Shown in pieces: positions 22,568 through 60,915 of a DNA stretch of 64,000 nucleotides. The notes beneath the pieces are model-generated. The model worked only from the letters and a program-made list of their open reading frames with translations. It ran no database searches and was not told where the DNA came from. The stretch spans positions 16,399 through 80,398 of the IMG/VR virus record IMGVR_UViG_3300023174_007844; one strand, given 5' to 3'. The translations under genes were made by a program, and so were the position numbers. How positions within the stretch are numbered: position 1 is the stretch's first letter; each line of letters opens with the position of its first letter. The stretch comes from a virus.

Positions 22568-23038
22568 TTATTCTGGGACAATTAGCTTCTCATATGTTTC
22601 AAAAAATTCCTGAGAAGCAATCCTGTACACTTCAAGATAATTTGGAGAAGGTGAAACAATATAATCTCCAGGCTTTAATGACATTAATCTGCCCCATTTT
22701 GCTACAAATTCAAGTTCAGAACCATAATATCTACAAGCAAGAATCTTACCTTTTGGGATGTAAATTGCACCTTGTTCATAATAATAGAAAAATTTATATC
22801 TACTAAACAACATATCAGAAGGAACGATATATTCTTCTTGACATTCTGTTTGTAAATTTTTCACTACAAAATCGCCTTCTTTTGCATAATTTGTAGTTTC
22901 CAATCCATCAGCGGTCCAAGTTTCTATATATTGATTTAATTGGGCAGGATAAGCATAAATTAAACAAGTTTTAAAATACTCTTGTCCATTGTCTCTTATT
23001 TCAGGAAAAAAATAAGAGTATGCTTCATCTTGTGTCAT
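22568..23038 (-). CDS. PGDYG-like protein
   Basis: Internal duplication AKEGDFVV / LKPGDYIV, ends FFETYE. Confidence 0.6.
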   Translation of the reverse strand: MTQDEAYSYFFPEIRDNGQEYFKTCLIYAYPAQLNQYIETWTADGLETTNYAKEGDFVVKNLQTECQEEYIVPSDMLFSRYKFFYYYEQGAIYIPKGKILACRYYGSELEFVAKWGRLMSLKPGDYIVSPSPNYLEVYRIASQEFFETYEKLIVPE

Positions 23039-23883
23039 CAGGATTCAAGCATTTGTTCGATATTGAAAAGATTAGTTCCGATATCTCTTAGATTGGTATA
23101 TATTTCTGTTAGCTTTTTTACTTGTTCTTCAGGAAGATTATTAGGATTTTCAGCAGTGTTTACCATACGATAATTTTCATCATAATTGCTTTTGACATCC
23201 CCAATTACAGAGGATATAAAACTTTGCATATCATCTAATTTTCTAGAAATTTCATCTACATTTAATTCTGATAATTTAGAAATTACTTCAGAATATTGAT
23301 CAGATGACGTGCCAGATTCATCTCCTAATTCAACTTCTGACCCTCTTCTAATATCTAATTCATCGCGGGTTATATCGTTTTTCTTAAGCCAATCTAATTG
23401 TTGTCTGGTAGGATTTGTGTAAATAGTTGCATTAGCTCTACCATTATTCAAGTTTATTCTCATAGCACCAGTGAGTTCAGAAAGTACGTGTCTATCAGAT
23501 CTATCTTTCAATGCTTCTGGATTTACACCTAATCTTGATAGTAAGTATTTATCAAACATTACGTGAGATCTTAAATTAGGAGTGACAGAACCATCAGGCA
23601 TTACGTAAAATGCTTCATATGGTGTGCTAAAATGTGTGTGGGTTTCTCTTGATCCACTTACCCAAGGACTAGATTGATCAAATTCAGACATAATTTTAGA
23701 AATTTCTGAATTGATAGCTGCAACCATTTCTTGTTCAGATCCATACTTTTCAATTAATTTTCTTTTGATTGTATCTGCATCATCAGTTGATGGATCTATA
23801 TAAGATTTAGAACGAAGCTCATTTTGAATAATTTGTTCTGCTTCTTCTTTGGAAATCGCTTGTTTAATAAATGAATACCACAT
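23038..23883 (-). CDS. MWY-leader protein
   Basis: Likely start MWYSFIKQA at 23883 behind AGG-N19-GTATAT-N7; YVMPDG..H...RI..PTRQQ domain. Confidence 0.7.
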   Translation of the reverse strand: MWYSFIKQAISKEEAEQIIQNELRSKSYIDPSTDDADTIKRKLIEKYGSEQEMVAAINSEISKIMSEFDQSSPWVSGSRETHTHFSTPYEAFYVMPDGSVTPNLRSHVMFDKYLLSRLGVNPEALKDRSDRHVLSELTGAMRINLNNGRANATIYTNPTRQQLDWLKKNDITRDELDIRRGSEVELGDESGTSSDQYSEVISKLSELNVDEISRKLDDMQSFISSVIGDVKSNYDENYRMVNTAENPNNLPEEQVKKLTEIYTNLRDIGTNLFNIEQMLES

Positions 23884-23920
23884 ACCAATAATATACTGGA
23901 AGAAATAAAAAAGACCCTGA

Positions 23921-24475
23921 TTATTCAGAGTCTTGATTGAAATCAAACTTTTGCTGTCCAGATATCAAACTATCTAATTTTTCACTAGTATCACAGCCAT
24001 AATTCATAATATTCTTAAAAGATTGGATTTCTTTACTTGACAAATCTAAATTGAAATGCTTTATTGCTACTTTGATATTTTCTTCCATTTCGTCAGGTGT
24101 AAATATCGAATTGTGAATAGCAAACATTCCACTATCAATTCCTAAGCTATAAGATTCAGGACCAAAATTAAACTTATAATAAAGCAAATGTCTATAAGAT
24201 CCACCTTCTTTATAATAATTTTCAAAAATCATATTAGTGATATGGAAAAATAATAACAATTGATTATCTGTTTCTAAAGATTCAAAATATTCTTTAGCTT
24301 TTTGCTTGTATTCTTCTATAGCTTTTATTTCCATCTCAAAAAATTCTTTATATTCTTCAGAGTTCAAATAGTCAGTAAATGATTTATAACTTTTTCCATT
24401 TATATCTGGCATTGGATTACCTGTACTTTCTCGTATTGAATCTTCTTTGCGTTGTCTAATTTCTTCCCAAGTCAT
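23921..24475 (-). CDS. Hypothetical phage protein
   Basis: GGSYRHLLYYKFNFGPESY..G...G motif. Confidence 0.65.
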   Translation of the reverse strand: MTWEEIRQRKEDSIRESTGNPMPDINGKSYKSFTDYLNSEEYKEFFEMEIKAIEEYKQKAKEYFESLETDNQLLLFFHITNMIFENYYKEGGSYRHLLYYKFNFGPESYSLGIDSGMFAIHNSIFTPDEMEENIKVAIKHFNLDLSSKEIQSFKNIMNYGCDTSEKLDSLISGQQKFDFNQDSE

Positions 24476-24476
24476 A

Positions 24477-24698
24477 TTAATCTTTTACAGGTTCAATATG
24501 AATACACTGGGCTTCTTCTTTTCTCAATGCAATATGACTTTCTCTGCAGTTTACAACCATCATATTTGTATGTTGTTTGTTGAGAATTTTTATTTCACAA
24601 CCAGGATTAAAACCTAATTCGGAAAGTCTTGTTCTGACAGTTCCGCATATTGATTCAATCCTATAAGTTTCACCAGCATAACCATCAAACAAAGTCAT
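24477..24698 (-). CDS. feoA: FeoA domain protein
   Basis: RTRLSELGFNPGCEIKI...IALRKEEAQCI. Confidence 0.8.
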   Translation of the reverse strand: MTLFDGYAGETYRIESICGTVRTRLSELGFNPGCEIKILNKQHTNMMVVNCRESHIALRKEEAQCIHIEPVKD

Positions 24699-24699
24699 T

Positions 24700-25146
24700 T
24701 CACCACCACAATTCAAACCAAAGTTTAGAAAGATATTCTACCGCTAAACGAACATCATCAGTAAGTTTTTTTCTTTCTTCGATATCTACTGAATTGAAAT
24801 ATTGGTCTGTAGCATAATAATTTTCAAAAGCTTGTACGATAAATCTCAACTTTTCGTAATAAGATTCTTCAGTTTCACCATTTGCAATTCCATTATTTAC
24901 ATCCATAAATCTTTTCAATCTAGGAATAATAAATAATGCCATAGTGCGATCTAAATGCCAAGTTTCTGTGTCATCAAAACCATTTAAAAATCTTTGCTGA
25001 CGATGTTGTTCTTTTCGTTCTGAATCTTTTTCGTAAACATCATCAGCAACACTAAAGCAAATATTCTCAAGACCCTCTGGCTTTATAGATAATTGCAAGA
25101 AGTCTTTTGATTTCTTCTGGGTCGATTTTGATTCTTTTTGGCTCAT
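24700..25146 (-). CDS. Hypothetical phage protein
   Basis: GFDDTETWHLD...IIPRLKRF...LWW. Confidence 0.7.
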   Translation of the reverse strand: MSQKESKSTQKKSKDFLQLSIKPEGLENICFSVADDVYEKDSERKEQHRQQRFLNGFDDTETWHLDRTMALFIIPRLKRFMDVNNGIANGETEESYYEKLRFIVQAFENYYATDQYFNSVDIEERKKLTDDVRLAVEYLSKLWFELWW

Positions 25147-25148
25147 CT

Positions 25149-25343
25149 TTATCGCTCATTTTCTTCTTTATTGGCTATATCGTAATAATTCATACCATTA
25201 CGTAAGCACCAAACTGAAAGAGCGCCTAAAAGAAAATCTGATGGCAATGTCCCAGTGGTTTTCCATACATGAGTTATAGCTACCAGAGCAACTACATACC
25301 AAAGTAAACCTGCAGCCTTGTTGTTGTCAATTTTATCTTGCAT
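25149..25343 (-). CDS. Small membrane protein
   Basis: Two hydrophobic segments; TATAAT-N7-ATG. Confidence 0.6.
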   Translation of the reverse strand: MQDKIDNNKAAGLLWYVVALVAITHVWKTTGTLPSDFLLGALSVWCLRNGMNYYDIANKEENER

Positions 25344-25388
25344 AATATTTATTATATCATAAAAAAAGAAGGCTGTAAAGCCTTCTTT

Positions 25389-25631
25389 TTATTTACTGAA
25401 TTCTTGAAAGTATGGGCATTTTTGATAGCCAGAACCATCTCGTACCCATCCATTACCTTTGCAAGTTTCTTTGCCTTTCCCCAGACATTCACAAACTCCA
25501 ATTGGTTTACCATTTCTGATAATCATATTGTCAATTTTAGCTTGCTCTTCTGGTGTAAGGTCTAGAAATTCAGCAATAGATCCAACACGAAATCCAGCTT
25601 CTTCTAAACGCTTCTTTTTCTCATCAGTCAT
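25389..25631 (-). CDS. Antitoxin-N-terminus-like peptide fused to a Cys-rich tail
   Basis: MTDEKKKRLEEAGFRVGSIAEFLDLTPEE then CEC..C..CP. Confidence 0.55.
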   Translation of the reverse strand: MTDEKKKRLEEAGFRVGSIAEFLDLTPEEQAKIDNMIIRNGKPIGVCECLGKGKETCKGNGWVRDGSGYQKCPYFQEFSK

Positions 25632-26037
25632 CGTATTCGTCTTCTTCATCATCAGATTCATCTAATGCTACTGCCAAATCTCCTGGTATTACGTCCCACA
25701 TAAAACCCTTATCTTCAAGAGTATCCGTATTCCAAGGTTCTAATTCTTCAAGCCATTCTCTATAATCTTGGTATTTCTCATTATAAAGATCTTGAAGAGT
25801 GTCAAAGTCCAATTGATATTCTTTGCCATAAAATTTCATAGCTTTGTCAAAATATCTACAATCAGAATCTATTTCAAGATAAGCATAGCCTTCTTCATTA
25901 AGAGGATCTCTGCTAGTGCCAAGGAAAGAATAATCACTAATAATGTCAATGATATTTAAATCACTTATAAGTTCAAGATCAACTTTCCAATAATCGTGTC
26001 TACCACAGTCTATAGCTTGAATTGTAACTTTTTCCAT
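25624..26037 (-). CDS. Hypothetical protein
   Basis: 137 aa, ISDYSF...YLEIDSDC. Confidence 0.65.
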   Translation of the reverse strand: MEKVTIQAIDCGRHDYWKVDLELISDLNIIDIISDYSFLGTSRDPLNEEGYAYLEIDSDCRYFDKAMKFYGKEYQLDFDTLQDLYNEKYQDYREWLEELEPWNTDTLEDKGFMWDVIPGDLAVALDESDDEEDEYDD

Positions 26038-26039
26038 AA

Positions 26040-26782: not shown

Positions 26783-26784
26783 GT

Positions 26785-26997: not shown

Positions 26998-26998
26998 T

Positions 26999-37177: not shown

Positions 37178-37459
37178 TGGCCAGTAGCACAATGGCAGTG
37201 CATTTGACTGTGGATTGATAGCAGCTTATTAGAGTAATTTAATATAGAAAATTGTCGAAATTCAGTGAAAGCTAAGTCGAAAGATATGCCAACACTGAGC
37301 CAAGCCCGTAAGGGAAGGTGCAGAGACTATAATGACAACATCCTACTAGGTATTGCTAAGGATGATGGTATAGTCCAGACTACAAACAGATTTATCTGGT
37401 AGTGAAAACTATAGTAGTAAGTAATCAAAGGGTTGATAGTTCGAGTCTATCCTGGCCAG
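37178..37459 (+). tRNA. tRNA-Asn(GTT) interrupted by a group I intron (exons 37178-37211, 37422-37459)
   Basis: Acceptor TGGCCAG/CTGGCCA, D-arm GCAC/GTGC, spliced anticodon arm TTTGA-CTGTTAA-TCAAA, T-arm GATAG-TTCGAGT-CTATC. Confidence 0.9.
37212..37421 (+). mobile_element. Group I self-splicing intron, 210 nt, between tRNA positions 35/36
   Basis: Exon ends in U, intron ends in G; P1 CTGT/GCAG with U.G; P10 GATTG/TAATC; P AATTCAGTGAA, Q AACACTGAGC, R CAGAGACTA, S GGTATAGTCC. Confidence 0.9.
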
Positions 37460-38333: not shown

Positions 38334-38350
38334 GGTATAATCCTTGTGAT

Positions 38351-38423
38351 GGCCTGTTAGTCGAGTGGTTAAGATGCCTCCCTTTCACGGAGGAGACCAG
38401 GGGTTCGATACCCCTACAGGCTA
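38351..38423 (+). tRNA. tRNA-Glu(TTC)
   Basis: GGCCTGT/ACAGGCT, CCTCC-CTTTCAC-GGAGG, AGGGG-TTCGATA-CCCCT. Confidence 0.93.
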
Positions 38424-38447
38424 TTTGTGGTATAATGTATTTGTTGT

Positions 38448-38518
38448 TCTCTGGTGGTGTAACGGTAGCACAGAGGTTTTTGGTGCCTTTAGTTGGAGTT
38501 CGAATCTCTACCGGAGAA
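38448..38518 (+). tRNA. tRNA-Gln(TTG)
   Basis: TCTCTGG/CCGGAGA, GAGGT-TTTTGGT-GCCTT, TGGAG-TTCGAAT-CTCTA. Confidence 0.88.
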
Positions 38519-38523
38519 CCTTT

Positions 38524-38594
38524 GCTCCATTAGTATAAAGATAGTACGGATCTCTTGTAAAGATTGGGTAGGCGTTTGATTCGTCTATGGAGCT
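38524..38594 (+). tRNA. tRNA-Thr(TGT)
   Basis: GCTCCAT/ATGGAGC, GATCT-CTTGTAA-AGATT, AGGCG-TTTGATT-CGTCT (atypical T-loop). Confidence 0.8.
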
Positions 38595-38624
38595 CCTTTC
38601 CCTTTTTTGTGATATAATAAAGTT

Positions 38625-42254: not shown

Positions 42255-42327
42255 GCAACCGTAGCTCAGTGGATAGAGCAAATGCCTTCTAAGCATTTGG
42301 CCACAGGTTCGAGTCCTGTCGGTTGTA
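42255..42327 (+). tRNA. tRNA-Arg(TCT)
   Basis: GCAACCG/CGGTTGT, AATGC-CTTCTAA-GCATT, ACAGG-TTCGAGT-CCTGT. Confidence 0.95.
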
Positions 42328-42386
42328 TCAGAAAAATCTCATCCTAAACAGATGGGATTTTTCTTTTTAAACCAGAATAAATTATT

Positions 42387-42764
42387 ATGTGGTATCGAAT
42401 TTCAGCAAAGAAAAAAGTTAGCTTAGTTATTGTATTTAATGGCGATAAAGTTTTGTTAGGTGAAAAATTGTCTGGCTATGAAATTCCTGGCGGTCATGTT
42501 GATTATTTAGAAGATGAAAAAGATTGTGCCAGAAGAGAATTGGAAGAAGAAACTAACTTAAAGATATCTAAAATTAAACTTTTGCGCACTATGGATATGC
42601 CTGACAAAATTGTTTATGTTTATTACACTAATAATTATTCTGGTGATCTCTTAGCTGGAGATGATTTAGTAGGAGCAAGTTGGCATAAAATAAATGATTT
42701 GCCCAAAATAAAATTTAATGGTGCTGAATTAATTTCTGAAGCATACGAAAAAAGCTCCTCATAA
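42387..42764 (+). CDS. NUDIX hydrolase with MWY leader
   Basis: Nudix box GGHVDYLEDEKDCARRELEEETNL; MWYRISA. Confidence 0.9.
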   Translation: MWYRISAKKKVSLVIVFNGDKVLLGEKLSGYEIPGGHVDYLEDEKDCARRELEEETNLKISKIKLLRTMDMPDKIVYVYYTNNYSGDLLAGDDLVGASWHKINDLPKIKFNGAELISEAYEKSSS

Positions 42765-45593: not shown

Positions 45594-46679
45594 ATGTGGT
45601 ATAAAATAGCCCAGCAATTGCAACTTCCTGGTTTAGATGTAGAGCAATCTTCACCAACAACAAGAGAAAAATCTAAGCCAAGAGAAGAATCACCAGAACT
45701 TTTAGAAACTCAAAAAAATCCTCAAAGTTTATTCTTTAGTGATTGGGCTAAAGGTCATTACGTGCCAGAAGAACCTGTCTATCACGGAACAACTCACGAA
45801 TTTGATAGATTTGATATTGACAAAGGTTCAATGAGTAATTATTTTGGTCCAGCATTTTATTTTACTAGTGATGAAGAAGATGCTTCAAAAAATTACACTG
45901 GTACTGGGCCTGATCAAGAAAGAAACATTGAAAATCTTCAATATAATTTGCTTGATCAATATGATGAAGACGAATATTATCTATGGAATTTATATAGTGA
46001 TGATCCAAGATATAGTAGAGAATTCAATGAAGACGGTAAACCATATAACCCAAGTTATCTAGCAGAAAAAATTGCCAGAGATACAATTTTAGGACCCAAT
46101 AAACCTAGAGTAATTCCTGCTCACGTTAGAATGAAAAACCCAATTCATCTAACTAGTTCACAGGATGCAGAACATCCAGAAAAAGTTTTCATTGATGATA
46201 TAGAAGGTAGTATGGACTTTTTAGGGAAAAGAATCAATCCTTCTGACAACCATAATTTGAGCACAGTTATATCAAAACTTCACAATATTATAGTGGACTA
46301 TTGGGATTATGATATTGCTAATGAAATTTGTGAAGAATTAGTGCAAGATAATTCTGTTGGATTTGATGAAGAAATTTCAGCCTCTTCATTGATCATGGAC
46401 CTAATTAAAAAATTAGAATTTTATGATAGTGATCAAGATACTCAGTTTAAAGGTGATATTGTCAAAAGATTTATTAATTCACTAGGACATGACAGTATTG
46501 TCATGGATCCTAATCAATTTTTCAGAATGTACTCTCAAAAGAAACCAATCAAACATTACATCACCTGGAATCCAGAAAACATTAAACACGCCAGAGAAAA
46601 TATAGAGTTTGATCCAAAAAATCCTGTTATCACTGCTAAGAGTGGTAAAATTAATTTATGGAAGAATTCTTTGCTGTAG
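45594..46679 (+). CDS. ADP-ribosyltransferase-like (ART-PolyVal type) protein with MWY leader
   Basis: VYHGT...FDRFD...FGPAFYFT...A..Y, MKNP, GHDSI. Confidence 0.65.
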   Translation: MWYKIAQQLQLPGLDVEQSSPTTREKSKPREESPELLETQKNPQSLFFSDWAKGHYVPEEPVYHGTTHEFDRFDIDKGSMSNYFGPAFYFTSDEEDASKNYTGTGPDQERNIENLQYNLLDQYDEDEYYLWNLYSDDPRYSREFNEDGKPYNPSYLAEKIARDTILGPNKPRVIPAHVRMKNPIHLTSSQDAEHPEKVFIDDIEGSMDFLGKRINPSDNHNLSTVISKLHNIIVDYWDYDIANEICEELVQDNSVGFDEEISASSLIMDLIKKLEFYDSDQDTQFKGDIVKRFINSLGHDSIVMDPNQFFRMYSQKKPIKHYITWNPENIKHARENIEFDPKNPVITAKSGKINLWKNSLL

Positions 46680-47020
46680 TTTTCATCGAATGTATGATGG
46701 AAAATAATAGATGTTTCTCTGACAAAGATTTTTATAAATTATTAAAAACCCAAAGACTAGATAAATCAAAAGTAAATTTCAATCAACTTATGCAAGCATT
46801 TTTAATTGAATTTGAATTTGATAATTATGAGATTTTAGACAATATATGGCAGCCTAAAGGATCATTTGTTTCTCATAAAGCAATTTGGAATATAATTGAT
46901 GAATTAGAGTTACATTTAGAAGTGGAAAATTCATTGGGTGGATTTTACGAAACAAGTTGTGATGTAGTACAGAAAATTAATAATTATCTTTGGTTATGCG
47001 AAAAAGAAGCCTCCCAATAA
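46658..47020 (+). CDS. Hypothetical protein
   Basis: 120-aa ORF. Confidence 0.55.
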   Translation: MEEFFAVVFIECMMENNRCFSDKDFYKLLKTQRLDKSKVNFNQLMQAFLIEFEFDNYEILDNIWQPKGSFVSHKAIWNIIDELELHLEVENSLGGFYETSCDVVQKINNYLWLCEKEASQ

Positions 47021-47055
47021 AGGGGGGCTTCTTTTTTTATAAGAAACTTATTGAT

Positions 47056-47520
47056 ATGTATGCTGAAAAACTCTTAAGGATAGCAAGTAAATTAGATAGC
47101 TTAGAACAGTATAAGTTAGCAGATAAATTTCTAAAACTTGCTCAAGATATGTCTGTTCCTTATTATGTATATCCCACTCAGCAAAAATATGATTATAGAA
47201 ACAGAATACCAATGAAACGAGATTTCACTGGCAAATCTACAACAGAAATAGATAATAAGTTTGGTCAGGATGCAAAAATATATTTACAACAATTAATAAA
47301 AGATCCATTATTATTTGACCATCCACAATCAAAAATAATGTTAGACACTATATTAAATGATCCTGACTATAAAATGAATCAATCCTCTTTAGTCAATATG
47401 GTTAATATATATCGAAATCATTATGAGCAACTAAATGACAATAGAAATGATATTCATGCAATTGCTGATTTGGAACCAGAATTACACAAGCACTTAGACA
47501 ATATGTTGAGTAAAACTTAG
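47056..47520 (+). CDS. Tagged hypothetical protein
   Basis: Likely start MYAEKLLRIASKLDSLEQYKLADKFLKLAQ at 47056. Confidence 0.7.
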   Translation: MYAEKLLRIASKLDSLEQYKLADKFLKLAQDMSVPYYVYPTQQKYDYRNRIPMKRDFTGKSTTEIDNKFGQDAKIYLQQLIKDPLLFDHPQSKIMLDTILNDPDYKMNQSSLVNMVNIYRNHYEQLNDNRNDIHAIADLEPELHKHLDNMLSKT

Positions 47521-47529: not shown

Positions 47530-49317
47530 ATGTGGTACAACAGAACAATTTTAGCAGCAATACAAGATGCAATCAACGCCTTGCAATCAAAAGGTGTAAG
47601 TGATCAGATTATTCAGTTTGTGCACTCTTTGCCTAATGACAAAAAAGGTAAAGCAATTGGTGCGTTGAATCAAAATCCTTCTATGATGATTGATGATTTG
47701 AAAAGTTTATTCGAATCAGGTTATAAGCCTTCAAGTCAGGAATTGCAACTTGTTAAAGATTATGATCCAAAATTTCAAAGTTGGGCTTTATACCAATACA
47801 AACAATTAAGAGCTAACAAATTAAATGATGATCCAAAAGATGATAGATGGGAATATAAGCAACCATTAACTGGTTATGCTGGCATTAAAGATGATCTAGA
47901 TAAGGTTCACGATTTTTTTAGACATCATACTCTAGATAATCCTAACTATAACATTGGAACAAAATCATTTCAAGAAGCTTTTGATGATTCTGATGAGTGG
48001 CATAATGCTATGGCTCAAAGAGGATCTGGAAAATTCTATTTACCATTCAAGAGAGATGAATCTGGAGAATTGATTGACGAAAAGATTGTTCATAGATTTG
48101 AAGATGGATCTATGATTGTAAGAGTAGAAGATCCAAACGATTTAGATGTTGAAGGCAATTTTATGCATCACTGTGTAGGCTCATATGCAGACAGTGTTAA
48201 GTATGGAGATTGTACTATTTATTCTTTGAGAAATAAATTTAATAATCCAGAAGCAACTATTGAAGTTGGCAGAGATGGAAAAGTTAAGCAAATCAAGGGC
48301 CCAAGCAATTCTGAAATTCACGATGAGGATAAAGTAGAAAAAATTGCAGAATTCTTTGAAGGCAGAGATGACATTAAGAAAAAAGCTGGAGAAGGTTGGG
48401 TTCATCAGAGAGCTAGAGAATGGGATCCTAGCGAAGTAGATTGGTCTATCTATCCTGATGATTTGAGATATTCTATAACTGAGGCTGCTTACGGTCCATA
48501 TCTTGAAGATTATGATGATGAAGATCACGGAGACTTTGCTAGATTTGGAATTACTGCTAATGAGTTTGACCAAAATGAATTTACTGAGCAAAATATAAGA
48601 AATGTTGATATGGCTGATATTGTCAAAGAAGCAACTAAAGCTATAGATGAAGGATTGAAAAGCAAACCTTATGGAAGAACTTTTTCTTTAGAAGATTATG
48701 ATATCAATGAATTAGCTGACACTGTTGTAAGTGTTGCTTTTGATAAATTAAAAAGAATTGTAGATGACATTTATTTACCTGATCCAACACAAGAACCAGA
48801 TTTTTATGAGCGTCGTGGTGGAGTAGAAGCATACAAACTTAAAACAGCAGAAAGTTTATTAAGCAATAATCCATTAACAGATTTGCTTTATCATTTTGCT
48901 GATCGTTATGATGAATATGCAAGATATATGGATGATAATTTTGGTTTTAGCTTGGATGAGAATGAATTTAATTTAGATCAATCTGCTTTTGGGGCTATGG
49001 ATAATTCTTCAGATAAATTAAGTTTAGAAATAGCTAAAAAGATTTTTGAAAAATATGAAAATGATGAATCAGTGCAGAAGTTTGAAGAATTACTAGGAAC
49101 AAAGTTCATCTTACCTAATTTGCAAGATTATGATGTTGAATATAAACCAAAAATGAATTATATCACTGGTAAAGAAATGTACACAGAAGATCCAGCTCAA
49201 TTAAGATTCCAAGATCTTCCAGAAGGTGAATCTTTCAATTTAGCTAGACATAGAAAGAAACAACAGAATCTTGAAGATGATAATTTAGAAATTCCTTTTG
49301 AAGATGATTTTGAATAA
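47530..49317 (+). CDS. PcfJ-like domain protein with MWY leader
   Basis: LDVEGNFMHHCVGSY...IYSLR...ATIEV...QIKGPSN; C-terminal FNLARH. Confidence 0.75.
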   Translation: MWYNRTILAAIQDAINALQSKGVSDQIIQFVHSLPNDKKGKAIGALNQNPSMMIDDLKSLFESGYKPSSQELQLVKDYDPKFQSWALYQYKQLRANKLNDDPKDDRWEYKQPLTGYAGIKDDLDKVHDFFRHHTLDNPNYNIGTKSFQEAFDDSDEWHNAMAQRGSGKFYLPFKRDESGELIDEKIVHRFEDGSMIVRVEDPNDLDVEGNFMHHCVGSYADSVKYGDCTIYSLRNKFNNPEATIEVGRDGKVKQIKGPSNSEIHDEDKVEKIAEFFEGRDDIKKKAGEGWVHQRAREWDPSEVDWSIYPDDLRYSITEAAYGPYLEDYDDEDHGDFARFGITANEFDQNEFTEQNIRNVDMADIVKEATKAIDEGLKSKPYGRTFSLEDYDINELADTVVSVAFDKLKRIVDDIYLPDPTQEPDFYERRGGVEAYKLKTAESLLSNNPLTDLLYHFADRYDEYARYMDDNFGFSLDENEFNLDQSAFGAMDNSSDKLSLEIAKKIFEKYENDESVQKFEELLGTKFILPNLQDYDVEYKPKMNYITGKEMYTEDPAQLRFQDLPEGESFNLARHRKKQQNLEDDNLEIPFEDDFE

Positions 49318-49323: not shown

Positions 49324-52300
49324 TTATATCTTTTTTCTTAAAATATAGGTTAGTTTATCTGCTAACCTATATTCTTTTTTAAAATCCAATTTTTGAGCGA
49401 TTTTCACCATAGAGTTTACAAAGGCAGTGGTAAGTTCTTCATCTTCTTCAGGTACATCTTCTTCTGACGCAAATGGATCAGGCAATTCTTTTTGTGTTTC
49501 AGGCGGTGTTGGTCTTTTTCCTTTCATCACTTGGCCAGTTTCTTCATCAAAATATCCAGTGCCATATTTTGATTTTCTTTCATATGCAAGAATTTTCGGA
49601 GCAAGGTTAGGATACATATGAACTAATGCTGCTCTTATCTCTGGCATTATATTTACATAAACATCTCCGTTCAAAACTTGCATTTCAAAAAATTTAGGAT
49701 AATTTCTTAATAAATGTAATTGATGATTTAAATTTGGACGATTTCTAAAATAACTAAATATGTCTAAATTATAAAAATTTGGATCTTCTTTTACTTCTGG
49801 ATAATAATGTGTATACAAATCCAAAAATTCTAACATAATATCTGGTGTAAAGTCTTTGAAAGAGTCGATTTCTTCATCACTAAATTTTCTTTTTTCTAGT
49901 ATTTTTGAGAGGAATTCAAATGCATAACTTCTACCACGATGTAATACTCTGTAAAATTCAGATCTTACATATCTGTTGCCATCTAAAAATTGATTTATAT
50001 AGTCTTCATATAGCCAAGGTGTTTTTTCAATGTCTATATTAGACATAAAATATCTAGCAGAAATGTTATTCATTTTTCTCTGCAAAAATTCTTTAATTTC
50101 TGGATCTTCTAAAAATTCTTGTGGAATAAACCTTAAAATGTTTGCAAAATCATTTTCATTAAAATTTAAATTACTTCCTATCCAATCAGCAAAATGATCA
50201 ATATTCTTAAAGAAATTTTTCCAGAAATTTATATCTTGTATTGCATTTTGAAATTCTTGAATAGCATCTCTGAAATTTTCTTTTGCCTCATCACTCATCT
50301 CAACTTCTTCAAATTTCTTAAATAATTTGCCATCATTGTAAATAGCCCATAATAAAGTTTGATTTGCATTATGAGGGATAATTTCTTCTGGTCTATCTTT
50401 GTATGCGTAATGAGCGTCTTTTAAGATTGTTTGTTCGTGCTCTTTAAGATCAAATGCAAAATTTATGGTTGGATTATTACTCCAATCATATTGATAAGTT
50501 CCACTATATTCGTCAAAATTATTAAATGAAAATTCACGTAAAAGATCTACATTTTTTATTTGGTTAATTAATGAAAGATCAAAAGGATCGCTGGGATTGT
50601 AATATTTAGTAATATCTTTGGAAGGTTTGGGACATAAAATTGAATACTTTACTTCTTCAAATACCCCAAGTTCTTTTGCTTTTTCAAAATCATTTTTATC
50701 AAAACCAGTTGCCATTGCCACTTCTTTAATAAGTGATTTATCCCCTGATTGCAATACGACATTTTTTAAATCATTTTTTGGAAAAGCCGAAGTGTAATCT
50801 ACTAAATCATTATCTGTCAATCTATTTTTTGCATACAATAAAAATAATTTTGGATCTTCAAAAATTAAATTTCGTACACCATTTGGAACAAAAGTTTTTA
50901 CAGTGCTAATATATTTGATCAATAAATCTCTGTCGTTTAAATCTAATAATAAATCAGCATCATTAAGGCGAACTCCAATACCAGTTTGTAAGTTATCGTT
51001 TTCTATCAAAGTTTCAAGATAAATTCTTAAAAAATCTGGTTTTTCTTTTAAGGTTGGTTGTGCAATTTCATCTATACCGCCCTGTTTTTCGATTAATTGT
51101 TCAAATAAATCTTTTCTATTTAAGTTTATTAAATCAATTTGCATAAGAGGGCTAAATCTTCTACCACCTATAATTTGACTTCTTAAATATGAAGTAAGTA
51201 AATTTTTGTTTTTTCTAAAAAATTGATATTGCGTTTCAGAAAGTTGCAAACCAGTGTTGACATATTTCATCAACAAATCTTCACCACCAACACTTCTAGA
51301 TAAATATTCTAAAACTTCATCTTTTACACGTTTACCTAAACCCATCCATCTTGAAGTATAGAATTTAGCATCAGGGTTATTAAGGATGTACGCAATACCA
51401 GATCTATCTGAAACCTCTTCTATGATATCTAAACTATTTTTATCTATTCTTTGAATGTCACTATCTTCGCCATTGACTTTAGATTTTCCAGATTGCCATA
51501 AAAGTATATCTTCCACACCCAAAGCAGCTATATAGTTAAAAGTGCCATTTTGTAATCTTTCTTCTGTAGACTTGGGTTTGTTCTTAAGAATTAATTCTTC
51601 TTGACCAGTTTCAGGATTTGGTCTTGTTGCTTGTAAATTAATTCCCTTGCTAGTTAAGTATTGAGAATACTTATCCCAATCCCATCCATTTGTAAGTTGA
51701 TGTCCGGTTATATTTGGAATGTCTGTTAATAAAACATTTTCTGAAGCAAAATCAATTGCAACTTTTCTTTGATTTTCTGTAGGAGGATTGTTATCAAAAA
51801 CTACAAAAAAAGAAGCATCGTGACTATCTCTATAAGATTGCCACATATTATTTGGGCCTTTATAGCCAATACACCAACTTGTATCATCACCAACTAATCT
51901 TCTACCATCGTTGGCATTATTTATCTCAAATATCCTTATAGAATTATCTTTATTTGCTACAACAGGAACATCTTCTGTTTCAGTGTTTGTAGCTTGTTCT
52001 TCAGCTTCTAAAATAGGAAATTGAGCGTGTATATATTCTGTTAATTTAATCGCATCATCAAAAACTTCGTCGTTTATTTTGACAGCATTTTTACTAACTG
52101 AAAATTTAGTAATTCTTCTTGAGTCAATATATTTTTGTATAGCTTCTACATATTCATCTGCTTCAATATTACGAGCTAATATCCAAGCAGCAAATACTTG
52201 ATACTTTTGATCATATTTCTTTACTGTTTCTCTTAAGTCTTGATAATATTCTGCATCTTTACCCAAATGATTGCAAATTGCTTGAATATCTTCTTTTATG

Positions 52301-52335
52301 CCAGCTGTGATGATCCTAAAACTATACCTTTTCAT
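49324..52335 (-). CDS. Large protein with TSWCIG domain and C-terminal tag
   Basis: GDDTSWCIG...NMWQSY...FFVVFD; ends MVKIAQKLDFKKEYRLADKLTYIL. Confidence 0.7.
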   Translation of the reverse strand: MKRYSFRIITAGIKEDIQAICNHLGKDAEYYQDLRETVKKYDQKYQVFAAWILARNIEADEYVEAIQKYIDSRRITKFSVSKNAVKINDEVFDDAIKLTEYIHAQFPILEAEEQATNTETEDVPVVANKDNSIRIFEINNANDGRRLVGDDTSWCIGYKGPNNMWQSYRDSHDASFFVVFDNNPPTENQRKVAIDFASENVLLTDIPNITGHQLTNGWDWDKYSQYLTSKGINLQATRPNPETGQEELILKNKPKSTEERLQNGTFNYIAALGVEDILLWQSGKSKVNGEDSDIQRIDKNSLDIIEEVSDRSGIAYILNNPDAKFYTSRWMGLGKRVKDEVLEYLSRSVGGEDLLMKYVNTGLQLSETQYQFFRKNKNLLTSYLRSQIIGGRRFSPLMQIDLINLNRKDLFEQLIEKQGGIDEIAQPTLKEKPDFLRIYLETLIENDNLQTGIGVRLNDADLLLDLNDRDLLIKYISTVKTFVPNGVRNLIFEDPKLFLLYAKNRLTDNDLVDYTSAFPKNDLKNVVLQSGDKSLIKEVAMATGFDKNDFEKAKELGVFEEVKYSILCPKPSKDITKYYNPSDPFDLSLINQIKNVDLLREFSFNNFDEYSGTYQYDWSNNPTINFAFDLKEHEQTILKDAHYAYKDRPEEIIPHNANQTLLWAIYNDGKLFKKFEEVEMSDEAKENFRDAIQEFQNAIQDINFWKNFFKNIDHFADWIGSNLNFNENDFANILRFIPQEFLEDPEIKEFLQRKMNNISARYFMSNIDIEKTPWLYEDYINQFLDGNRYVRSEFYRVLHRGRSYAFEFLSKILEKRKFSDEEIDSFKDFTPDIMLEFLDLYTHYYPEVKEDPNFYNLDIFSYFRNRPNLNHQLHLLRNYPKFFEMQVLNGDVYVNIMPEIRAALVHMYPNLAPKILAYERKSKYGTGYFDEETGQVMKGKRPTPPETQKELPDPFASEEDVPEEDEELTTAFVNSMVKIAQKLDFKKEYRLADKLTYILRKKI

Positions 52336-52440: not shown

Positions 52441-52446
52441 TCCTAA

Positions 52447-52918: not shown

Positions 52919-53818
52919 TTAATTGCAGCCTTGATAATCACCAGTAGCCCAGAGACAAAGATCTCCTACTGCTTTCTTGTATTGAACAGCCTTAGCGTGT
53001 CCATCTACAAAAATACAGTTGACAGTACCAGTATGTCTAGCACCAATTTTATTCAATCCTGTTGCAGCGTCGAGAGTGCCACCAGATGCACTCCAGTTTG
53101 CGTTTCCAAGATTCTTCCAATAATACTTATATTGGCTACCTTGTGAATTTACATATGTTTGGATAGCAGCAATATCTGAAGTAGTAAATTTAGTAGTATC
53201 AAGTAAACCTGATTCATTCATTACATCTGGAACTACACCATAGTAAGAAGCATCAGATACAAGAATAATTCCAGCAGGTCTGGAAACGCTAGCTGCTGCA
53301 ACACTTTGTGGATTACCACTAGCATCAGCGAATGAACCAGCAGGACTCATCCAAGCATCATTATGTCCATATGAGTTTTGTCCACCATAGTTTGTTCCCA
53401 ATGCTCCTGGTGCATTGAAATTGATCTTTGCTTTATCTCCTGGTGCAAAAGCAGTTGGATTGCTAGGACACTTGAATAAAGTATAGTTCTTTACATATGG
53501 TTGAAGTAAGTGTACCCAGTAATAACGCATAGAAGAATTTGCATCGTAAGCACTAGCAGCTGGATCTCCTACATACTGAGGACAAACCTGAAATGCGCCA
53601 GAAGCATCACGGCAGTTGAAACGGTGTGGGTAATAGTTCTCATCATAGTCTTGGACATACATCATAGTAGATGTACCAATCTGTTTCATATTAGATAAGC
53701 AGGATGCAGAACGAGCCTTATCACGAGCCTGGGCAAAAACAGGGAAGAGAATTGCAGCCAAAATAGCGATGATTGCAATGACAACGAGGAGTTCAATAAG
53801 AGTAAACGCTTTTTTCAT
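52919..53818 (-). CDS. Prepilin-type N-terminal cleavage/methylation protein, DUF1559 / H-X9-DG family
   Basis: [36 protein letters not shown]...CLSN.KQ; C-terminal [16 protein letters not shown]. Confidence 0.93.
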
Positions 53819-54466: not shown

Positions 54467-54955
54467 ATGAAAAAAGTAATTGCTGGATACATAGAACTCG
54501 CAAATATTCTTGATGATGCTGGACACGAACAAGAAGCGCAAGAATTTACTGAACGTGCTGTCAAACTAGCTCAAACTCATCAATCATCAACTAATCCAAG
54601 AAAATTAGAATCTTTTAAAAGTATGGTTAATCAAGACGCAGCAAAAGCAACTGATTTAATTATGCAAGCAATGAAAGGTGAAATTTCAAAAGATATGCTT
54701 AATTCAGAAATAAAAAGCATGTTGAAAAAACAAGAATCATATAAGAAAAATGAAAATATCAGTAAACATGATGAAGATATATTATTAAATAGCATAGTAA
54801 ATAATAATAAAACCAAATCATCAGATGGCCCAAAGTTCAAAACAGTTCAAGAAGCAAGAAACTATTACAGCCAAAAACATGTATTTAGAACTACTGAAGA
54901 AGCTGAACAATTTGAAAAAGAAAAAAATCAATTCTTTAAGTCGCAAGGAAGATAA
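54467..54955 (+). CDS. Tagged hypothetical protein
   Basis: YIELANILDDAGHEQEAQEFTERAVKLAQ. Confidence 0.7.
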   Translation: MKKVIAGYIELANILDDAGHEQEAQEFTERAVKLAQTHQSSTNPRKLESFKSMVNQDAAKATDLIMQAMKGEISKDMLNSEIKSMLKKQESYKKNENISKHDEDILLNSIVNNNKTKSSDGPKFKTVQEARNYYSQKHVFRTTEEAEQFEKEKNQFFKSQGR

Positions 54956-55817: not shown

Positions 55818-56161
55818 TGGGAAAATTTATTAAAACAGCGCTTCTTCAACAAAAAGAAAGATTAGAACAACAAGAAGTACAATTAGAAGAGGTGAGAAAA
55901 GGCGAACTTTATAAATCATTACAAGATGGCCTTTCAAAACATCACAAAACAGTGGATCCAAAGAATTTTGAAGATTTATTTGAAAAAGTGAGAAAAGGCA
56001 ATCCTAGCGATCCATTAGAGATCCAATTAAGTAAAGCTGGCCTTTATAAACAAAAAAATAATGTAGAAGACAAAACATTTACAGAAATATTAGAAGAAAT
56101 TGAAAAAGGTTTTCCTAAAGAAATTATAGAGATTCAATTAGATCCTAGAAGATATGAATAA
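55817..56161 (+). CDS. Hypothetical protein
   Basis: MGKFIKTA start; TAATG coupled. Confidence 0.6.
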   Translation: MGKFIKTALLQQKERLEQQEVQLEEVRKGELYKSLQDGLSKHHKTVDPKNFEDLFEKVRKGNPSDPLEIQLSKAGLYKQKNNVEDKTFTEILEEIEKGFPKEIIEIQLDPRRYE

Positions 56162-56612
56162 ATTAGTAAGAATAGCCCAACAATTAGACAAAAATGGCCA
56201 ATATAAAGCTGCTGACAAGATAGCTTCCATTTTACTTATGGCCATACAATATAAACAAGATTTAGAAGATGGTATTAGGGCTTTATTCAATTATTATGAT
56301 GAAAGAACATTAACAAGATTACTAAAACAAACAAATATTTTAGAAAATAATGGTGATATATCTTCTCGCCCATTCGATTATAACGAATTGATGCAAGAAC
56401 TAAATAATTTTGAAACAATATCACCAGAAGACATGCCAACAAGATCAGGAAATAATAATTATCAAAATTTAGAAGAAGTAAAATCTTCTATCATGAAAAC
56501 AATTGAAATTATAGACAAATTCCAAATATCAATAGCAAATGCACACGATGTTCAAAGAGAACAACAAAAGAAAATACAAGATTTACAGGGTGATATTATT
56601 CCCGACGAGTGA
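56154..56612 (+). CDS. Tagged hypothetical protein
   Basis: MNKLVRIAQQLDKNGQYKAADKIASIL. Confidence 0.7.
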   Translation: MNKLVRIAQQLDKNGQYKAADKIASILLMAIQYKQDLEDGIRALFNYYDERTLTRLLKQTNILENNGDISSRPFDYNELMQELNNFETISPEDMPTRSGNNNYQNLEEVKSSIMKTIEIIDKFQISIANAHDVQREQQKKIQDLQGDIIPDE

Positions 56613-57547: not shown

Positions 57548-57554
57548 AAAACTA

Positions 57555-57779: not shown

Positions 57780-57867
57780 TGCTTGGAAATAATACATATA
57801 AATAATATAAAGGGAAAAAATAATTTGATTTGTAAAAAGATTATAACAACCTACACAGGAACAAAAA

Positions 57868-58689
57868 ATGAATAAGAGACAAATAGTAGCATCCCTAAAT
57901 AAAATAGCAAATGAACTTGACGATTCAGGTATGTACATAGAATCTAAATCTGTCACAAATGTCATGAAAAAATTAGCACAATCTAATTTTATCAAAAATA
58001 GATTTATTGAATTACACCCACAAATTCAACAAGAAATTGATAGACTAAAATCTGCAAAACCAGGCTCAGGGCTAATTGAAATATCAGATATTTACACTAA
58101 TAATAGATATTGGAATATGCCATCATTTATTGATGAAAAAAATATTTCACAAAGAATCAAGCAACTACAAAGCCCAGAATATCAAAAAACACTTGCAGAA
58201 AAAAGACTTAAGTTCATTTCTAATAAATTAGAAACAGAAAGATTATCAGATACCGATAGACAAACATTATTAAACGATCTTAAATATCTTAAACAATTCG
58301 TGTCAGCTCAAAATCTTTCTGATAACCCAGAACTCAATTCCCAAAAACAAACACCACAAACCGCATACGAAAGAATGCAACAAACAGAAGCTGAAGAACT
58401 AGATAAACTGAATCCTAAACCTATTGATTATAACCAAAAAGTATATGAGATTGTCTTTAAAGAAATGAGGAAAGCATACCCAAGTAAATCAGATACAGAT
58501 ATAGGACTCTCATTGTCTAATAAAACAAATCTTCAAGGATATAAAGAAATCAATAAAAATCCTGAACTTAGAGATAATATCCTAAATGCTATAAGAATTT
58601 TTTCTAGCAAATTTATGGATGCAGAACAAGCATACAGAAAACTAAGCGGAATATTTATGAGCAAAATAAGTTTTTCGGGAGTGAGATAA
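57868..58689 (+). CDS. Tagged hypothetical protein
   Basis: MNKRQIVASLNKIANELDDSGMYIESKSVTNVMKKLAQ. Confidence 0.72.
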   Translation: MNKRQIVASLNKIANELDDSGMYIESKSVTNVMKKLAQSNFIKNRFIELHPQIQQEIDRLKSAKPGSGLIEISDIYTNNRYWNMPSFIDEKNISQRIKQLQSPEYQKTLAEKRLKFISNKLETERLSDTDRQTLLNDLKYLKQFVSAQNLSDNPELNSQKQTPQTAYERMQQTEAEELDKLNPKPIDYNQKVYEIVFKEMRKAYPSKSDTDIGLSLSNKTNLQGYKEINKNPELRDNILNAIRIFSSKFMDAEQAYRKLSGIFMSKISFSGVR

Positions 58690-58717
58690 AAAAGAGGAGC
58701 AAAGCTCCTCTTTTTTA
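58687..58717. terminator. Bidirectional terminator, copy 1 of 3
   Basis: AAAAAAGAGGAGC-AAA-GCTCCTCTTTTTT. Confidence 0.88.
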
Positions 58718-59308
58718 TTTAATCACATCTTTTAAAGTTTTACTTATTAAATCCCAATTTTTGCCTCTAATAATATCATCTTTACTCTTATTAAATATTT
58801 CTATAACCTTACTATCAAAACGCACAGAAACATAAGAATTACCACTAAATAACCCTTCTAACAACCTGAAAACTTTTTCATCATCGCAATAAAACCCAAT
58901 ATAACCCACCACTTCTTTCTTTCCACTACATATATCGCTAAACTCTCTATAACTAAAAGGAATCTCCCAATTAGGATCCATTAAAAAATATTTATTATCA
59001 TTCTCGCAATTATTTAACCATAAACCAATAGTGCGAATCTTTTTCCTATCACCCAAAAGATTTTTCCAAGCCTTATCAATGAAATTCTTTGTGCGATTAT
59101 GGCCCTCGCAACTTGGCAACGTGTCATAACCATTATTGTTCAAATACTTTACAATACTCTTAATTTTTGGATCTAAAGTGTCATCAAGCTCTGCACTATT
59201 AAAGCTATCACTCTTGCGCTTCTTAAAATAATACCAAAGATTATGATCCTCACTGTAAAACCAATCATAATACTTCAACTTGTCAACACCAATTGGACTA
59301 ATTCTCAT
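58715..59308 (-). CDS. Hypothetical protein with LN..G..T..SCEGH motif
   Basis: LDPKIKSIVKYLNNNGYDTLPSCEGH. Confidence 0.65.
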   Translation of the reverse strand: MRISPIGVDKLKYYDWFYSEDHNLWYYFKKRKSDSFNSAELDDTLDPKIKSIVKYLNNNGYDTLPSCEGHNRTKNFIDKAWKNLLGDRKKIRTIGLWLNNCENDNKYFLMDPNWEIPFSYREFSDICSGKKEVVGYIGFYCDDEKVFRLLEGLFSGNSYVSVRFDSKVIEIFNKSKDDIIRGKNWDLISKTLKDVIK

Positions 59309-59389
59309 AATGTATTTTTATTCATATCAAAACAAGATTCCTAAAAGGATACAATAATAAATACTTAAAATATTACTATGGAGACCATA

Positions 59390-59884
59390 ATGAATAAAAG
59401 AATAATTTTATCATCCCTAGCAAATATAGCTGACGATTTTGAAAACAGTCACGAAATTCTTTTAGCTAATAGAATCAATCTAATTATGACCAAATTAGCT
59501 GAAAAAGAACAAGACTGCCCAGATGCAACACAAGATATTGAACTCAACCTCAAAAATAGACAAAAAGCTATCAATGAACACGGATATGGACCAGCTGACC
59601 CATCACAACCAAATGACAAATTCTGGAAAAAGAAAATGGATATGTGGAAAGTGGATGACCTATCAGAAGTGAAAAACATGCTATGCGGTAACTGTGCTGC
59701 TTTCGATATTACAACAAAAACAATGGACTGCATAGAAAAAGGCATAGGAGAAGATGCCACAGAAACCATAAACGCAGGAAAACTTGGCTACTGTAAATTC
59801 TTAAAATTTAAATGTGCAGCCAAAAGAACTTGTGACGCTTGGGTGACAGGCGGACCAATAACTGACAAAAAAGATAAGAAATAA
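59390..59884 (+). CDS. Tagged Cys-rich (metal-binding) protein
   Basis: MNKRIILSSLANIADDFE...LANRINLIMTKLAE; CGNCAAF, GYC, FKCAAKRTCDAW. Confidence 0.72.
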   Translation: MNKRIILSSLANIADDFENSHEILLANRINLIMTKLAEKEQDCPDATQDIELNLKNRQKAINEHGYGPADPSQPNDKFWKKKMDMWKVDDLSEVKNMLCGNCAAFDITTKTMDCIEKGIGEDATETINAGKLGYCKFLKFKCAAKRTCDAWVTGGPITDKKDKK

Positions 59885-59885
59885 A

Positions 59886-59916
59886 TAAAAAAGAGGAGCA
59901 AAGCTCCTCTTTTTTA
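59886..59916. terminator. Bidirectional terminator, copy 2 of 3
   Basis: Identical to 58687-58717. Confidence 0.88.
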
Positions 59917-60915
59917 TTCTATTACTTCTGTATCACTATTATCTGGCTCATAACTATCAAGATATTTCTTTACATCAATATAAAGATTTGTCAAATATTT
60001 TGCAATTTGTCTTATATATTGAGGATTTAAGTTTCTAATTATCTGTGAAAATAATAAATCATCGATGGTATATTGAGTTGTTTCTTTAATATTATTATAA
60101 AGCTCAGATGTTTTATATGAACTGCTAACATCTTTGATATTTACTATGGTTTGTATTAGAACTTTGAACTGCTCCAAAAATATCTCTTTACCTTTTTCTC
60201 TATTTTCATAATAAGTGTGAAATGTATGAATTAAATGATCGAAGCTGAAAAAAGTATCAAACTCAGATCTTATTGCTCTTAATTCACTTGGGTTTGCGTA
60301 ATAAAATTCAGAAAGGCCAAAAATTGAATCTTTTCTTCTGTCTAATTCCTTAAGGACTTTTTTTCTTTTTTTCCGCATTTCTGCATCAACTGGTTTTTCA
60401 TAACTACTTGTATCGCTCCAATCAACCGTCAAGTCTCTTGCAAGATCATATCTGGCATCTTCTCTTGAGCTTGATAACGGTTTTTGATTTGGAAGCGATT
60501 TATAAGTGCCAAAATTATCTGTTGAATGTAATTTGCCAGAACCTATATATAATTCTTTCTTACGAAAAGGTAACAAATCTTCAATAGCATGTATAATCTC
60601 GTGCTTTAATGTCGATTTCAAATAATTCAAATTTAGATTTTGATAGTGATATATATTCACAACAACTTCATGAGTTTCAGGATCATAATATGCTCCAGCT
60701 GTATCTGCTGAGCCTTCTGCATAACTAAATTTAAGATCTTTCAATTTGTTATCAGGAATATTTCTAAAATTTTCTTGAAATAAATCAATATCTAATTTGT
60801 ACTTGCCATTTGTATCAATGACTTTTGAAGCGTTAATAGCATTGTCAACATCCTGCTCAAATGTAGGACTCACAATTGACCATAATGACCCTTGTTTCGC
60901 AAATTTATACCACAT
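59914..60915 (-). CDS. Zincin-like metallopeptidase with MWY leader
   Basis: AGAYY, TLKHEIIHAIE, YYANPSELRA; MWYKFAKQ. Confidence 0.75.
   Translation of the reverse strand: MWYKFAKQGSLWSIVSPTFEQDVDNAINASKVIDTNGKYKLDIDLFQENFRNIPDNKLKDLKFSYAEGSADTAGAYYDPETHEVVVNIYHYQNLNLNYLKSTLKHEIIHAIEDLLPFRKKELYIGSGKLHSTDNFGTYKSLPNQKPLSSSREDARYDLARDLTVDWSDTSSYEKPVDAEMRKKRKKVLKELDRRKDSIFGLSEFYYANPSELRAIRSEFDTFFSFDHLIHTFHTYYENREKGKEIFLEQFKVLIQTIVNIKDVSSSYKTSELYNNIKETTQYTIDDLLFSQIIRNLNPQYIRQIAKYLTNLYIDVKKYLDSYEPDNSDTEVIE

Follow-up and report, generated by a model that had tools for sequence, protein, structure and literature searches.

An N-terminal MWY peptide shared by unrelated proteins of a freshwater giant phage, most likely a short leader of the capsid-targeting kind

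The window analyzed here is a stretch of 64,000 nucleotides, bases 16399-80398 of the 80,398-bp virus record IMGVR_UViG_3300023174_007844, and window coordinates are used throughout. The record (G+C 32%; CheckV completeness 22%) derives from an uncultured freshwater giant phage, for which a sequencing-run search found near-identical DNA in lake and freshwater metagenomes from several studies; only DNA runs, and no RNA run, were listed in that search. Its subject of interest is a short N-terminal peptide beginning Met-Trp-Tyr (MWY), hereafter the tag, with which five open reading frames (ORFs) in the window start:

23038-23883, minus strand: MWY gene 1, 281 residues, tag MWYSFIK encoded at 23863-23883, no Pfam or PHROG family
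42387-42764, plus strand: MWY gene 2, a NUDIX hydrolase of 125 residues, tag MWYRISA directly 5' of the first strand of the fold
45594-46679, plus strand: MWY gene 3, an ART-PolyVal-like protein (ART, ADP-ribosyltransferase) of 361 residues, tag MWYKIAQ
47530-49317, plus strand: MWY gene 4, a PcfJ-like protein of 595 residues, tag MWYNRTILAA
59914-60915, minus strand: MWY gene 5, an HExxH metallopeptidase-like (zincin) protein of 333 residues, tag MWYKFAKQG

All five ORFs, to which the initial annotation had drawn attention, are present and begin ATG-TGG-TAY. The pattern ATGTGGTAY occurs six times on the two strands of the 80,398-bp record, and five of the six sites are the starts of long ORFs. 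Four of these ORFs have an in-frame stop codon 2-11 codons upstream of the start. The start at 23883 is less certain because 27 open codons and a TTG lie upstream of it; two orthologs with 93% identity keep MWY, which in one of them is the first ATG. Five MWY starts among the 115 called genes stand against 0.07 expected from the proteome frequencies of Trp (1.4% of residues) and Tyr (4.6%), giving a Poisson P of 1.6e-8, and the earlier judgement that five such starts are very unlikely by chance is thereby borne out. Similarity among the MWY proteins stops after about 8 residues, and their bodies belong to different Pfam families or to none. Coincidence, or descent of the tag from a common ancestral N-terminal domain of paralogs, has nothing in its favor other than the shortness of the motif; the P value, the different families and the lack of similarity past the first residues refute it, and we regard it as next to impossible. 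Across 30 distinct MWY tags the consensus is M-W-Y-[R17 K7 S5]-x-[A18 S6]-[Q11 I7 K5], with Arg or Lys at position 4 in 24 tags and Ala or Ser at position 6 in 24, in agreement with the initial description of an Ala within a few residues of MWY.

Relatives were sought with a degenerate DNA pattern for MWY[KR]hA[KQ]Q (h, hydrophobic), which matched 30 IMG/VR stretches, about 20 of them true gene starts, including those of two further families of 146 and 155 residues. Four large records were followed up and, having been chosen as pattern matches, each contains one site by selection. The relatives are phages of about 360 kb. One of them, G003 (358 kb, 89% complete), has 17 ATGTGGTAY sites against 2 for a reversed-pattern control; 15 of the 17 are gene starts, that is, 15 MWY starts among 391 genes, called by a fixed first-ATG rule. 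Five of these genes are consecutive at 226.9-229.2 kb (L062 1936-5429, minus strand) and encode proteins of 232, 213, 74, 259 and 386 residues without a Pfam family; Pfam and PHROGs likewise gave no match for most of the MWY proteins of G003. A counterpart of the 281-residue MWY gene at 119056 of the same genome (L059 ~2968-3057, minus strand) breaks off at two stop codons after 29 residues and could be a disrupted copy. The capsid proteins of G003 and of another relative, G005, are 49% identical to gp27 of Bacillus phage G, and gp14 of that phage shares 31-33% identity with the portal proteins of G003, G005 and G006. Phage G itself (497 kb) has five ATGTGGTAY sites, the same number as the reversed-pattern control, none of which starts a gene, and its first 50 kb contain no N-terminal K-h-A-Q; no clear excess of MWY sites was found in the Tunturiibacter phage Tunturi_5 or the uncultured record LR745208. 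The tag is restricted to one clade of giant phages from fresh water, which are uncultured and distant relatives of Bacillus phage G.

The bodies behind the tag differ in how firmly they can be assigned, and the domains originally proposed hold for the NUDIX, PcfJ-like and, with partial coverage, ART-PolyVal proteins, while the zincin is left with an invariant HExxH and weak matches. The NUDIX protein matches PF00293 at 56.7 bits (cut-off 21.1), and its NUDIX box can be read as Gx5Ex7REUxEE with an intact REUxEE core and Asn in place of the final Gly of the box. The ART-like protein matches PF18760 at 36.1 bits against a cut-off of 31.2, aligned only over profile positions 8-45 of 140; behind its tag come a conserved QLQLPGLDVEQ stretch, a low-complexity linker that varies and is rich in Lys, Glu and Pro, and the domain from about residue 60. 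The PcfJ-like protein reaches 51.3 bits with PF14284 (cut-off 25; profile positions 55-141 of 147). Its seven orthologs (59-85% identity) all start MWY[NSY][RK]T. In other IMG/VR phages (L075-L088) the PcfJ domain belongs to larger proteins, in which more than 470 residues precede it; in this clade it is a separate tagged gene. The earlier remark that domains typical of DNA-delivered proteins are found here is sustained by the presence of the ART-PolyVal and PcfJ-like domains in several tagged proteins.

For the zincin, a SprT-like profile match of 18.9 bits falls below the cut-off of 25.6; VIA-align placed its model next to SPRTN (Z 7.0, root-mean-square deviation 3.6, 96 aligned residues) and PprI/IrrE (Z 6.8), both under the tool's caution mark of 8. 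A Foldseek search with the model gave no match at E <= 0.001, and tblastn of the protein against cultured phages found none. In an alignment of 15 members, the most divergent at 24% identity, the HExxH residues H105, E106 and H109 do not vary. MWY[KR]xAKQGS[LV]W stands at the start of every one of the 74 homologs, the lowest identity being 28% (in one case after a probably mis-called start), and the invariant columns are M1, W2, Y3, A6, K7, Q8, G9, S10 and W12 together with the three HExxH residues. In the AlphaFold model, residues 1-9 have a predicted local distance difference test score (pLDDT) below 50 and residues 10-60 one of 86-95, so the invariant tag appears not to be held by the fold. 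A role of the zincin as the peptidase of the leader was considered and is unlikely: G003, with its 15 MWY proteins, has no zincin, and for this reason the protein is taken as cargo.

The homologs of these proteins bear on the expectation that relatives in other phages lack the tag. It holds for the NUDIX family, in which 7 of the 150 nearest cluster representatives start MWY and 143 do not, the tagged ones having spacers of 5-17 residues before the first strand. The zincin and ART-like families cannot test the absence of the tag, since all detectable homologs carry it; among 41 ART-like homologs 37 start MWY[KR], 2 carry MWY[KR] after a probably mis-called start, and 2 are N-terminally different fragments without it. 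MWY is a short, portable peptide tag on unrelated bodies and lies outside their folds.

A gene next to MWY gene 4 connects the tag with a longer leader:

47056-47520, plus strand: leader-swap gene, 154 residues; its 30-residue leader, encoded at 47056-47145, ends F-L-K-L-A-Q directly before D-M-S-V-P

The gene lies just upstream of the PcfJ-like gene and is preceded by a terminator-like hairpin at 47010-47027. Its ortholog in the relative G002 has 131 residues and begins M-W-Y-R-L-A-Q, after which D-M-S-V-P follows. The 30-residue leader is found in about 45 of 68 homologs and a 7-residue MWY leader (MWYRxAQ) in 19, and both forms are always joined at [AS]Q before DMS. In a maximum-likelihood tree of the bodies alone the leader type changes 11 times, with at least 10 changes forced by well-supported branches, in a short alignment (124 columns, 63 rows) in which recombination between co-occurring phages is likely; recombination at the leader junction is what an exchange is. 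A structural model of the 154-residue form folds the leader into a hairpin of two helices (2-15 and 19-33, pLDDT 65-69), followed by a low-confidence stretch at 35-47 with invariant residues and a helical body with a pLDDT of 80-90. Because the tag is exchanged with the long leader, and because W-Y-[KR]-h-A-Q corresponds to the long leader's final turn, h-h-[KR]-h-A-Q, MWY is not the separate second tag class that the initial annotation had made of it. As far as the sequences can be read, it is the shortest form of one leader system, with the last turn of the long leader shifted to the N-terminus.

The terminal [KR]-h-[AS]-Q motif recurs, by regular-expression match, at leader ends and three times in a head protease protein of the relatives, a protein chosen post hoc. 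In the window, the following proteins carry the unit near their N-termini:

19205-20101, plus strand: long-leader protein, 298 residues, leader ending L-K-I-A-Q at residues 26-30
54467-54955, plus strand: long-leader protein, 162 residues, leader ending V-K-L-A-Q at residues 32-36
56154-56612, plus strand: protein of 152 residues beginning M-N-K-L-V-R-I-A-Q-Q-L-D, which matches the tag of MWY gene 3 from the Lys/Arg position onward
57868-58689, plus strand: long-leader protein, 273 residues, leader ending K-K-L-A-Q at residues 34-38

Pfam and PHROGs gave no match for the long-leader proteins.

A signal at the nucleotide level had to be considered, since -10-like hexamers precede MWY starts and TATAAT starts are common in the record. 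Three stretches upstream of MWY genes are concerned:

60916-60950, minus strand: promoter-like stretch TTTCCAGTATTATATAGGT, ending at the zincin start codon, with a -10-like hexamer 6-8 nucleotides before the ATG
23884-23915, minus strand: putative promoter-like stretch TTCCAGTATATTATTGGT, resembling that of the zincin and ending at the start codon of MWY gene 1
42360-42386, plus strand: putative promoter-like stretch CCAGAATAAATTATT, with GAATAA 6 nucleotides before the NUDIX start codon

Almost the same stretch as that of the zincin precedes its orthologs in G001 and G002, the proteins of which are 47-48% identical, and together with the MWY codons it also stands before an unrelated 342-residue MWY protein in G003 (BLASTP E 0.33); such sites lie at ~9975-10000 of L002, ~4535-4558 of L003 and, on the minus strand, ~3010-3031 of L061. 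Promoter and tag may thus move together as a cassette. The NUDIX stretch lies downstream of a tRNA-Arg and a T-run and is conserved in G002. We infer a promoter function for these upstream stretches.

On this basis the conserved element could be a nucleic acid, with ATGTGGTAT as a piece of the promoter or initiation signal that leaderless transcripts use, and the residues as its by-product. Three or four of the five MWY genes have a -10-like hexamer 6-8 nucleotides before the ATG, many other genes have TATAAT exactly 6 nucleotides before it, and the near-identical promoter-plus-MWY stretch stands before unrelated bodies, all as this explanation would have it. It is largely refuted by synonymous changes inside the tag: between orthologs TAT and TAC are swapped, four Ala codons and three Gly codons are used and Lys and Arg codons alternate, and the residues are kept. 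The Tyr codon of the NUDIX tag, for instance, is TAT in the window and TAC in G002, and that of the PcfJ-like tag is TAC in the window and TAT in G002. Against it also speak the MWY genes that are preceded by AGGA, or start directly at the stop codon of the preceding gene (overlapping stop), without an adjacent box; the PcfJ-like gene is one of them, with AGGA about 8 nucleotides upstream and no adjacent -10-like box. Positions 4 and 6, moreover, are conserved as residue classes, and as a peptide the long leader is the tag's equivalent. We consider a nucleic-acid signal very improbable; judged by its codons, the MWY tag is selected as protein.

Two candidate promoter motifs were set aside: CCAG[AT]A[TG], which is common inside genes and precedes the ATG in only three MWY genes, and GAATAA 6-7 nucleotides before the ATG, found at the NUDIX gene, one long-leader gene and two untagged genes, too few for a class. 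As a separate observation, TATAAT lies exactly 6 nucleotides before the ATG, without a Shine-Dalgarno sequence, in at least six genes (20325, 38625, 38938, 53942, 57547 and 62441), and with a 7-nucleotide gap at 25343; this spacing suggests that leaderless transcripts are widespread in this phage.

Portability, selection at the protein level, the equivalence of two leaders at a fixed junction and restriction to one clade together fit a shared receptor that reads a short peptide, and genes of the phage head in the relatives offer candidates for it. In G003, G005 and G006 the gene immediately upstream of that for the portal encodes an MWY protein of 175-177 residues, without a Pfam or PHROG match. 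On the downstream side of the portal gene lies a gene for a protein of 1,379 residues (L055 7856-11995, minus strand; orthologs in L091 and L092), the first 330 residues of which match the head maturation protease family phrog_18299 (E 3.6e-21). The same part matches gp19 of phage G at 38% identity; gp19 has only 300 residues, and the domain here is fused to an extension of about 1,100 residues. The protein starts M-Y-[RK]-V-A-K-G-G, like the zincin tag minus its Trp. The portal-adjacent tagged protein, the tag-like start of the protease with the copies of the motif inside it, and the kind of cargo favor the assembling head as the receptor, and the head protease as the enzyme that would trim the leader.

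We therefore weighed the possibility that MWY[KR]x[AS] and the long leader are a capsid address by which tagged proteins are loaded into the head, as by the capsid-targeting sequence (CTS) of phage T4, and give it an even chance. In such a scheme the unit of two hydrophobic residues, Lys or Arg, a hydrophobic residue, Ala or Ser, and Gln would be recognized during head assembly, and the tagged NUDIX, ART-like, PcfJ-like and metallopeptidase-like proteins would be loaded into the prohead together with others of no known family. The head maturation protease would then probably remove the leader by a cut at or close to the A-Q junction, in the manner of the CTS of T4 internal proteins, and the tagged enzymes would enter the next host with the DNA. 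More tentatively, the whole can be framed as a capsid-loading system for arbitrary proteins, in two sizes, within the ~360-kb clade, with a common receptor, trimming at A-Q by the head protease and frequent switching between the two forms; were this true, MWY[KR]x[AS], with 6-7 residues, would be the shortest capsid-loading tag known. Of the originally suggested short address label on ordinary enzymes, a portable peptide label on unrelated proteins and its selection as protein stand, and the packaging belongs to this proposal.

Several points weigh against a capsid address. No capsid, portal or terminase gene was found in the record, which represents only about 22% of the genome, and no tag was found among the cultured phages in the collection searched. 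The full K-h-A-Q is present in only one of the five tags of the window, that of the ART-like protein, and the other four depart after MWY, including those of the NUDIX, PcfJ-like and 281-residue proteins; since the tags deviate in this way, MWY itself is the invariant part, and its recognizer may therefore differ from that of the long leader. The statistical case for the shared unit is also qualified. The regular expression [KR][ILVFMY][AS]Q, written after the leaders had been seen, has 17 matches in the record against 4.5 in shuffles, and 11 in the first 45 residues of the record's proteins against 0.86 (maximum 5 in 500 shuffles); no exact 3-mer proved significantly enriched at N-termini in an unbiased scan, the best of 170 having a P of 0.0012. 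Because the expression was post hoc and the unbiased scan had found nothing, it was applied unchanged to the whole of G003, where it matched 22 times within the first 45 residues of 376 non-MWY proteins, against 2.6 times in shuffles (maximum 8 in 300 shuffles), at about four times the rate in the rest of the proteins. G003 is a relative with homologous leader proteins, and this is a replication but no independent lineage.

The evidence from the head genes is limited in similar ways. The protease protein contains h-h-[KR]-h-A-Q at residues 304, 773 and 1146, the first about 60 residues past the protease domain, where about 0.4 such sites would be expected in a protein of that size, and the excess was noticed post hoc among seven head proteins; since its three orthologs are 79-87% identical, conservation of the motif says little. 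As a link to the head the motif copies are suggestive only. A complex prediction for the G003 protease domain and the first 45 residues of the MWY ART-like protein of that genome scored 0.01, which is no evidence either way. An A-L-A-Q in the capsid protein was examined as a cleavage site and rejected, as it is also conserved in phage G, which has no tag system, and is probably structural. In G003 the head genes start behind plain Shine-Dalgarno sequences, which is not so for most MWY genes, and the two share no upstream motifs; co-expression of head and MWY genes is not indicated by such different starts, which say nothing on timing.

Some of these observations would equally suit a tag and long leader that serve as a docking or processing signal of a phage machine other than the capsid, such as a replication or takeover hub or an activating protease, with no packaging involved. 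Any shared receptor would account just as well for portability and leader exchange; the tagged genes are mostly found with replication and accessory genes, outside the head module, and their starts are unlike those of head genes. Against such docking speak the tagged protein adjoining the portal gene in three relatives, the head protease with its tag-like N-terminus and internal motif copies, and cargo domains of a kind delivered with DNA, and no candidate hub was identified; we find it rather unlikely. A signal of protein stability comes to mind as well, in which an uncleavable Met with Trp-Tyr, or an N-terminus exposed by cutting, would time degradation or protect from it. Bulky second residues block methionine aminopeptidase, and the strict position of M-W-Y at the extreme N-terminus fits recognition of a free N-terminus. 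The interchangeability of the tag with a 30-residue hairpin, the equivalent unit of which is internal, argues against this, and one degron common to at least 15 unrelated proteins per genome is hard to explain; a stability signal appears improbable. The MWY tag is most likely a CTS-like leader.

Known systems bear resemblance to a capsid address in different degrees. In phage T4 the internal proteins are diverse and have nothing conserved but the CTS, which can also load foreign proteins into the head (PMC3012670). As with the T4 CTS of IPI-III and Alt, which brings them into the scaffolding core of the prohead (PMC3012670), a short N-terminal peptide is all that is common to diverse proteins. 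The T4 cargo also includes an ADP-ribosyltransferase, with the ART-like protein as its counterpart here. The short peptide stands on unrelated bodies here (5 in the window, 15 in G003), and it is separable and transferable, as seen from the NUDIX spacers, the unpacked zincin tag and the repeated leader exchange. The two differ in that no sequence relation is apparent, in that the tag here is shorter (6-7 residues) with an invariant Trp-Tyr start, and in that a 30-residue hairpin leader occurs beside it and can take its place. A Glu-type cleavage site closes the T4 signal, and Gln stands at the junction here. Packaging and cleavage are proven for T4 and putative for the MWY system.

Other comparisons are with giant phages and with delivered or encapsulated effectors. 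In SPN3US, phiKZ and 201phi2-1, which are likewise giant phages, many head and ejection proteins have propeptides that the prohead protease removes at a short motif. That motif is A-x-E, most of the propeptides have 111-254 residues and no common tag of 6-7 residues has been described; the lineage is also unrelated, the capsid protein here resembling that of phage G. Head proteins of SPN3US have N-terminal propeptides as short as 20 and 24 residues (PMC10052503). Polyvalent proteins and MuF-fused effectors share ART-PolyVal and PcfJ-like domains with the tagged proteins. Such cargo domains are believed to accompany the DNA when it enters the recipient. They are fused there into one giant polypeptide with a head-anchoring domain, unlike the separate small tagged genes found here: each domain is an ORF of its own, of 125-595 residues and with its own start, with no fusion into one large polypeptide. 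Encapsulin cargo-loading peptides, too, are short terminal peptides that direct diverse enzymes into an HK97-fold shell, and thus a small address on swappable cargo; they differ in belonging to a cellular nanocompartment, in being usually C-terminal and in their sequence.

A full-text literature search for the MWY tag in phages returned only unrelated papers and none describing it. If the tag is a capsid address, giant phages would turn ordinary enzymes into injected tools of host takeover or anti-defense with six or seven residues, and the injected proteome of uncultured phages could be read from sequence, with at least 15 MWY and about 20 long-leader proteins per genome. On the same condition, foreign proteins could conveniently be loaded into phage heads with so small a tag, for which a natural long form offers a comparison. 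The repeated exchange of leaders on one body amounts to a natural experiment that marks a functional boundary, A-Q before D-M-S, and the cleavage hypothesis is therefore directly testable.

The remaining genes of the record are mostly small and without a family. Those with recognizable functions concern replication and nucleotide metabolism, comprising ribonucleotide reductase-sized ORFs, a RecJ-like exonuclease, a primase, a UvsX-like recombinase, a DnaB-like helicase and an AAA ATPase. Four tRNAs were detected by ARAGORN and a gathering-level Rfam scan at 38350-38596 and 42255-42327; at these settings neither a further tRNA, such as one at 37178-37459, nor any intron family was listed. Two large ORFs of 844 residues (11788-14322, plus strand) and 1,003 residues (49324-52335, minus strand) have no Pfam or PHROG match. 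A further ORF of 299 residues (52919-53818, minus strand) has, by reading of the ORF list, a prepilin-type N-terminus, which is unusual in a phage and may hint at the host.

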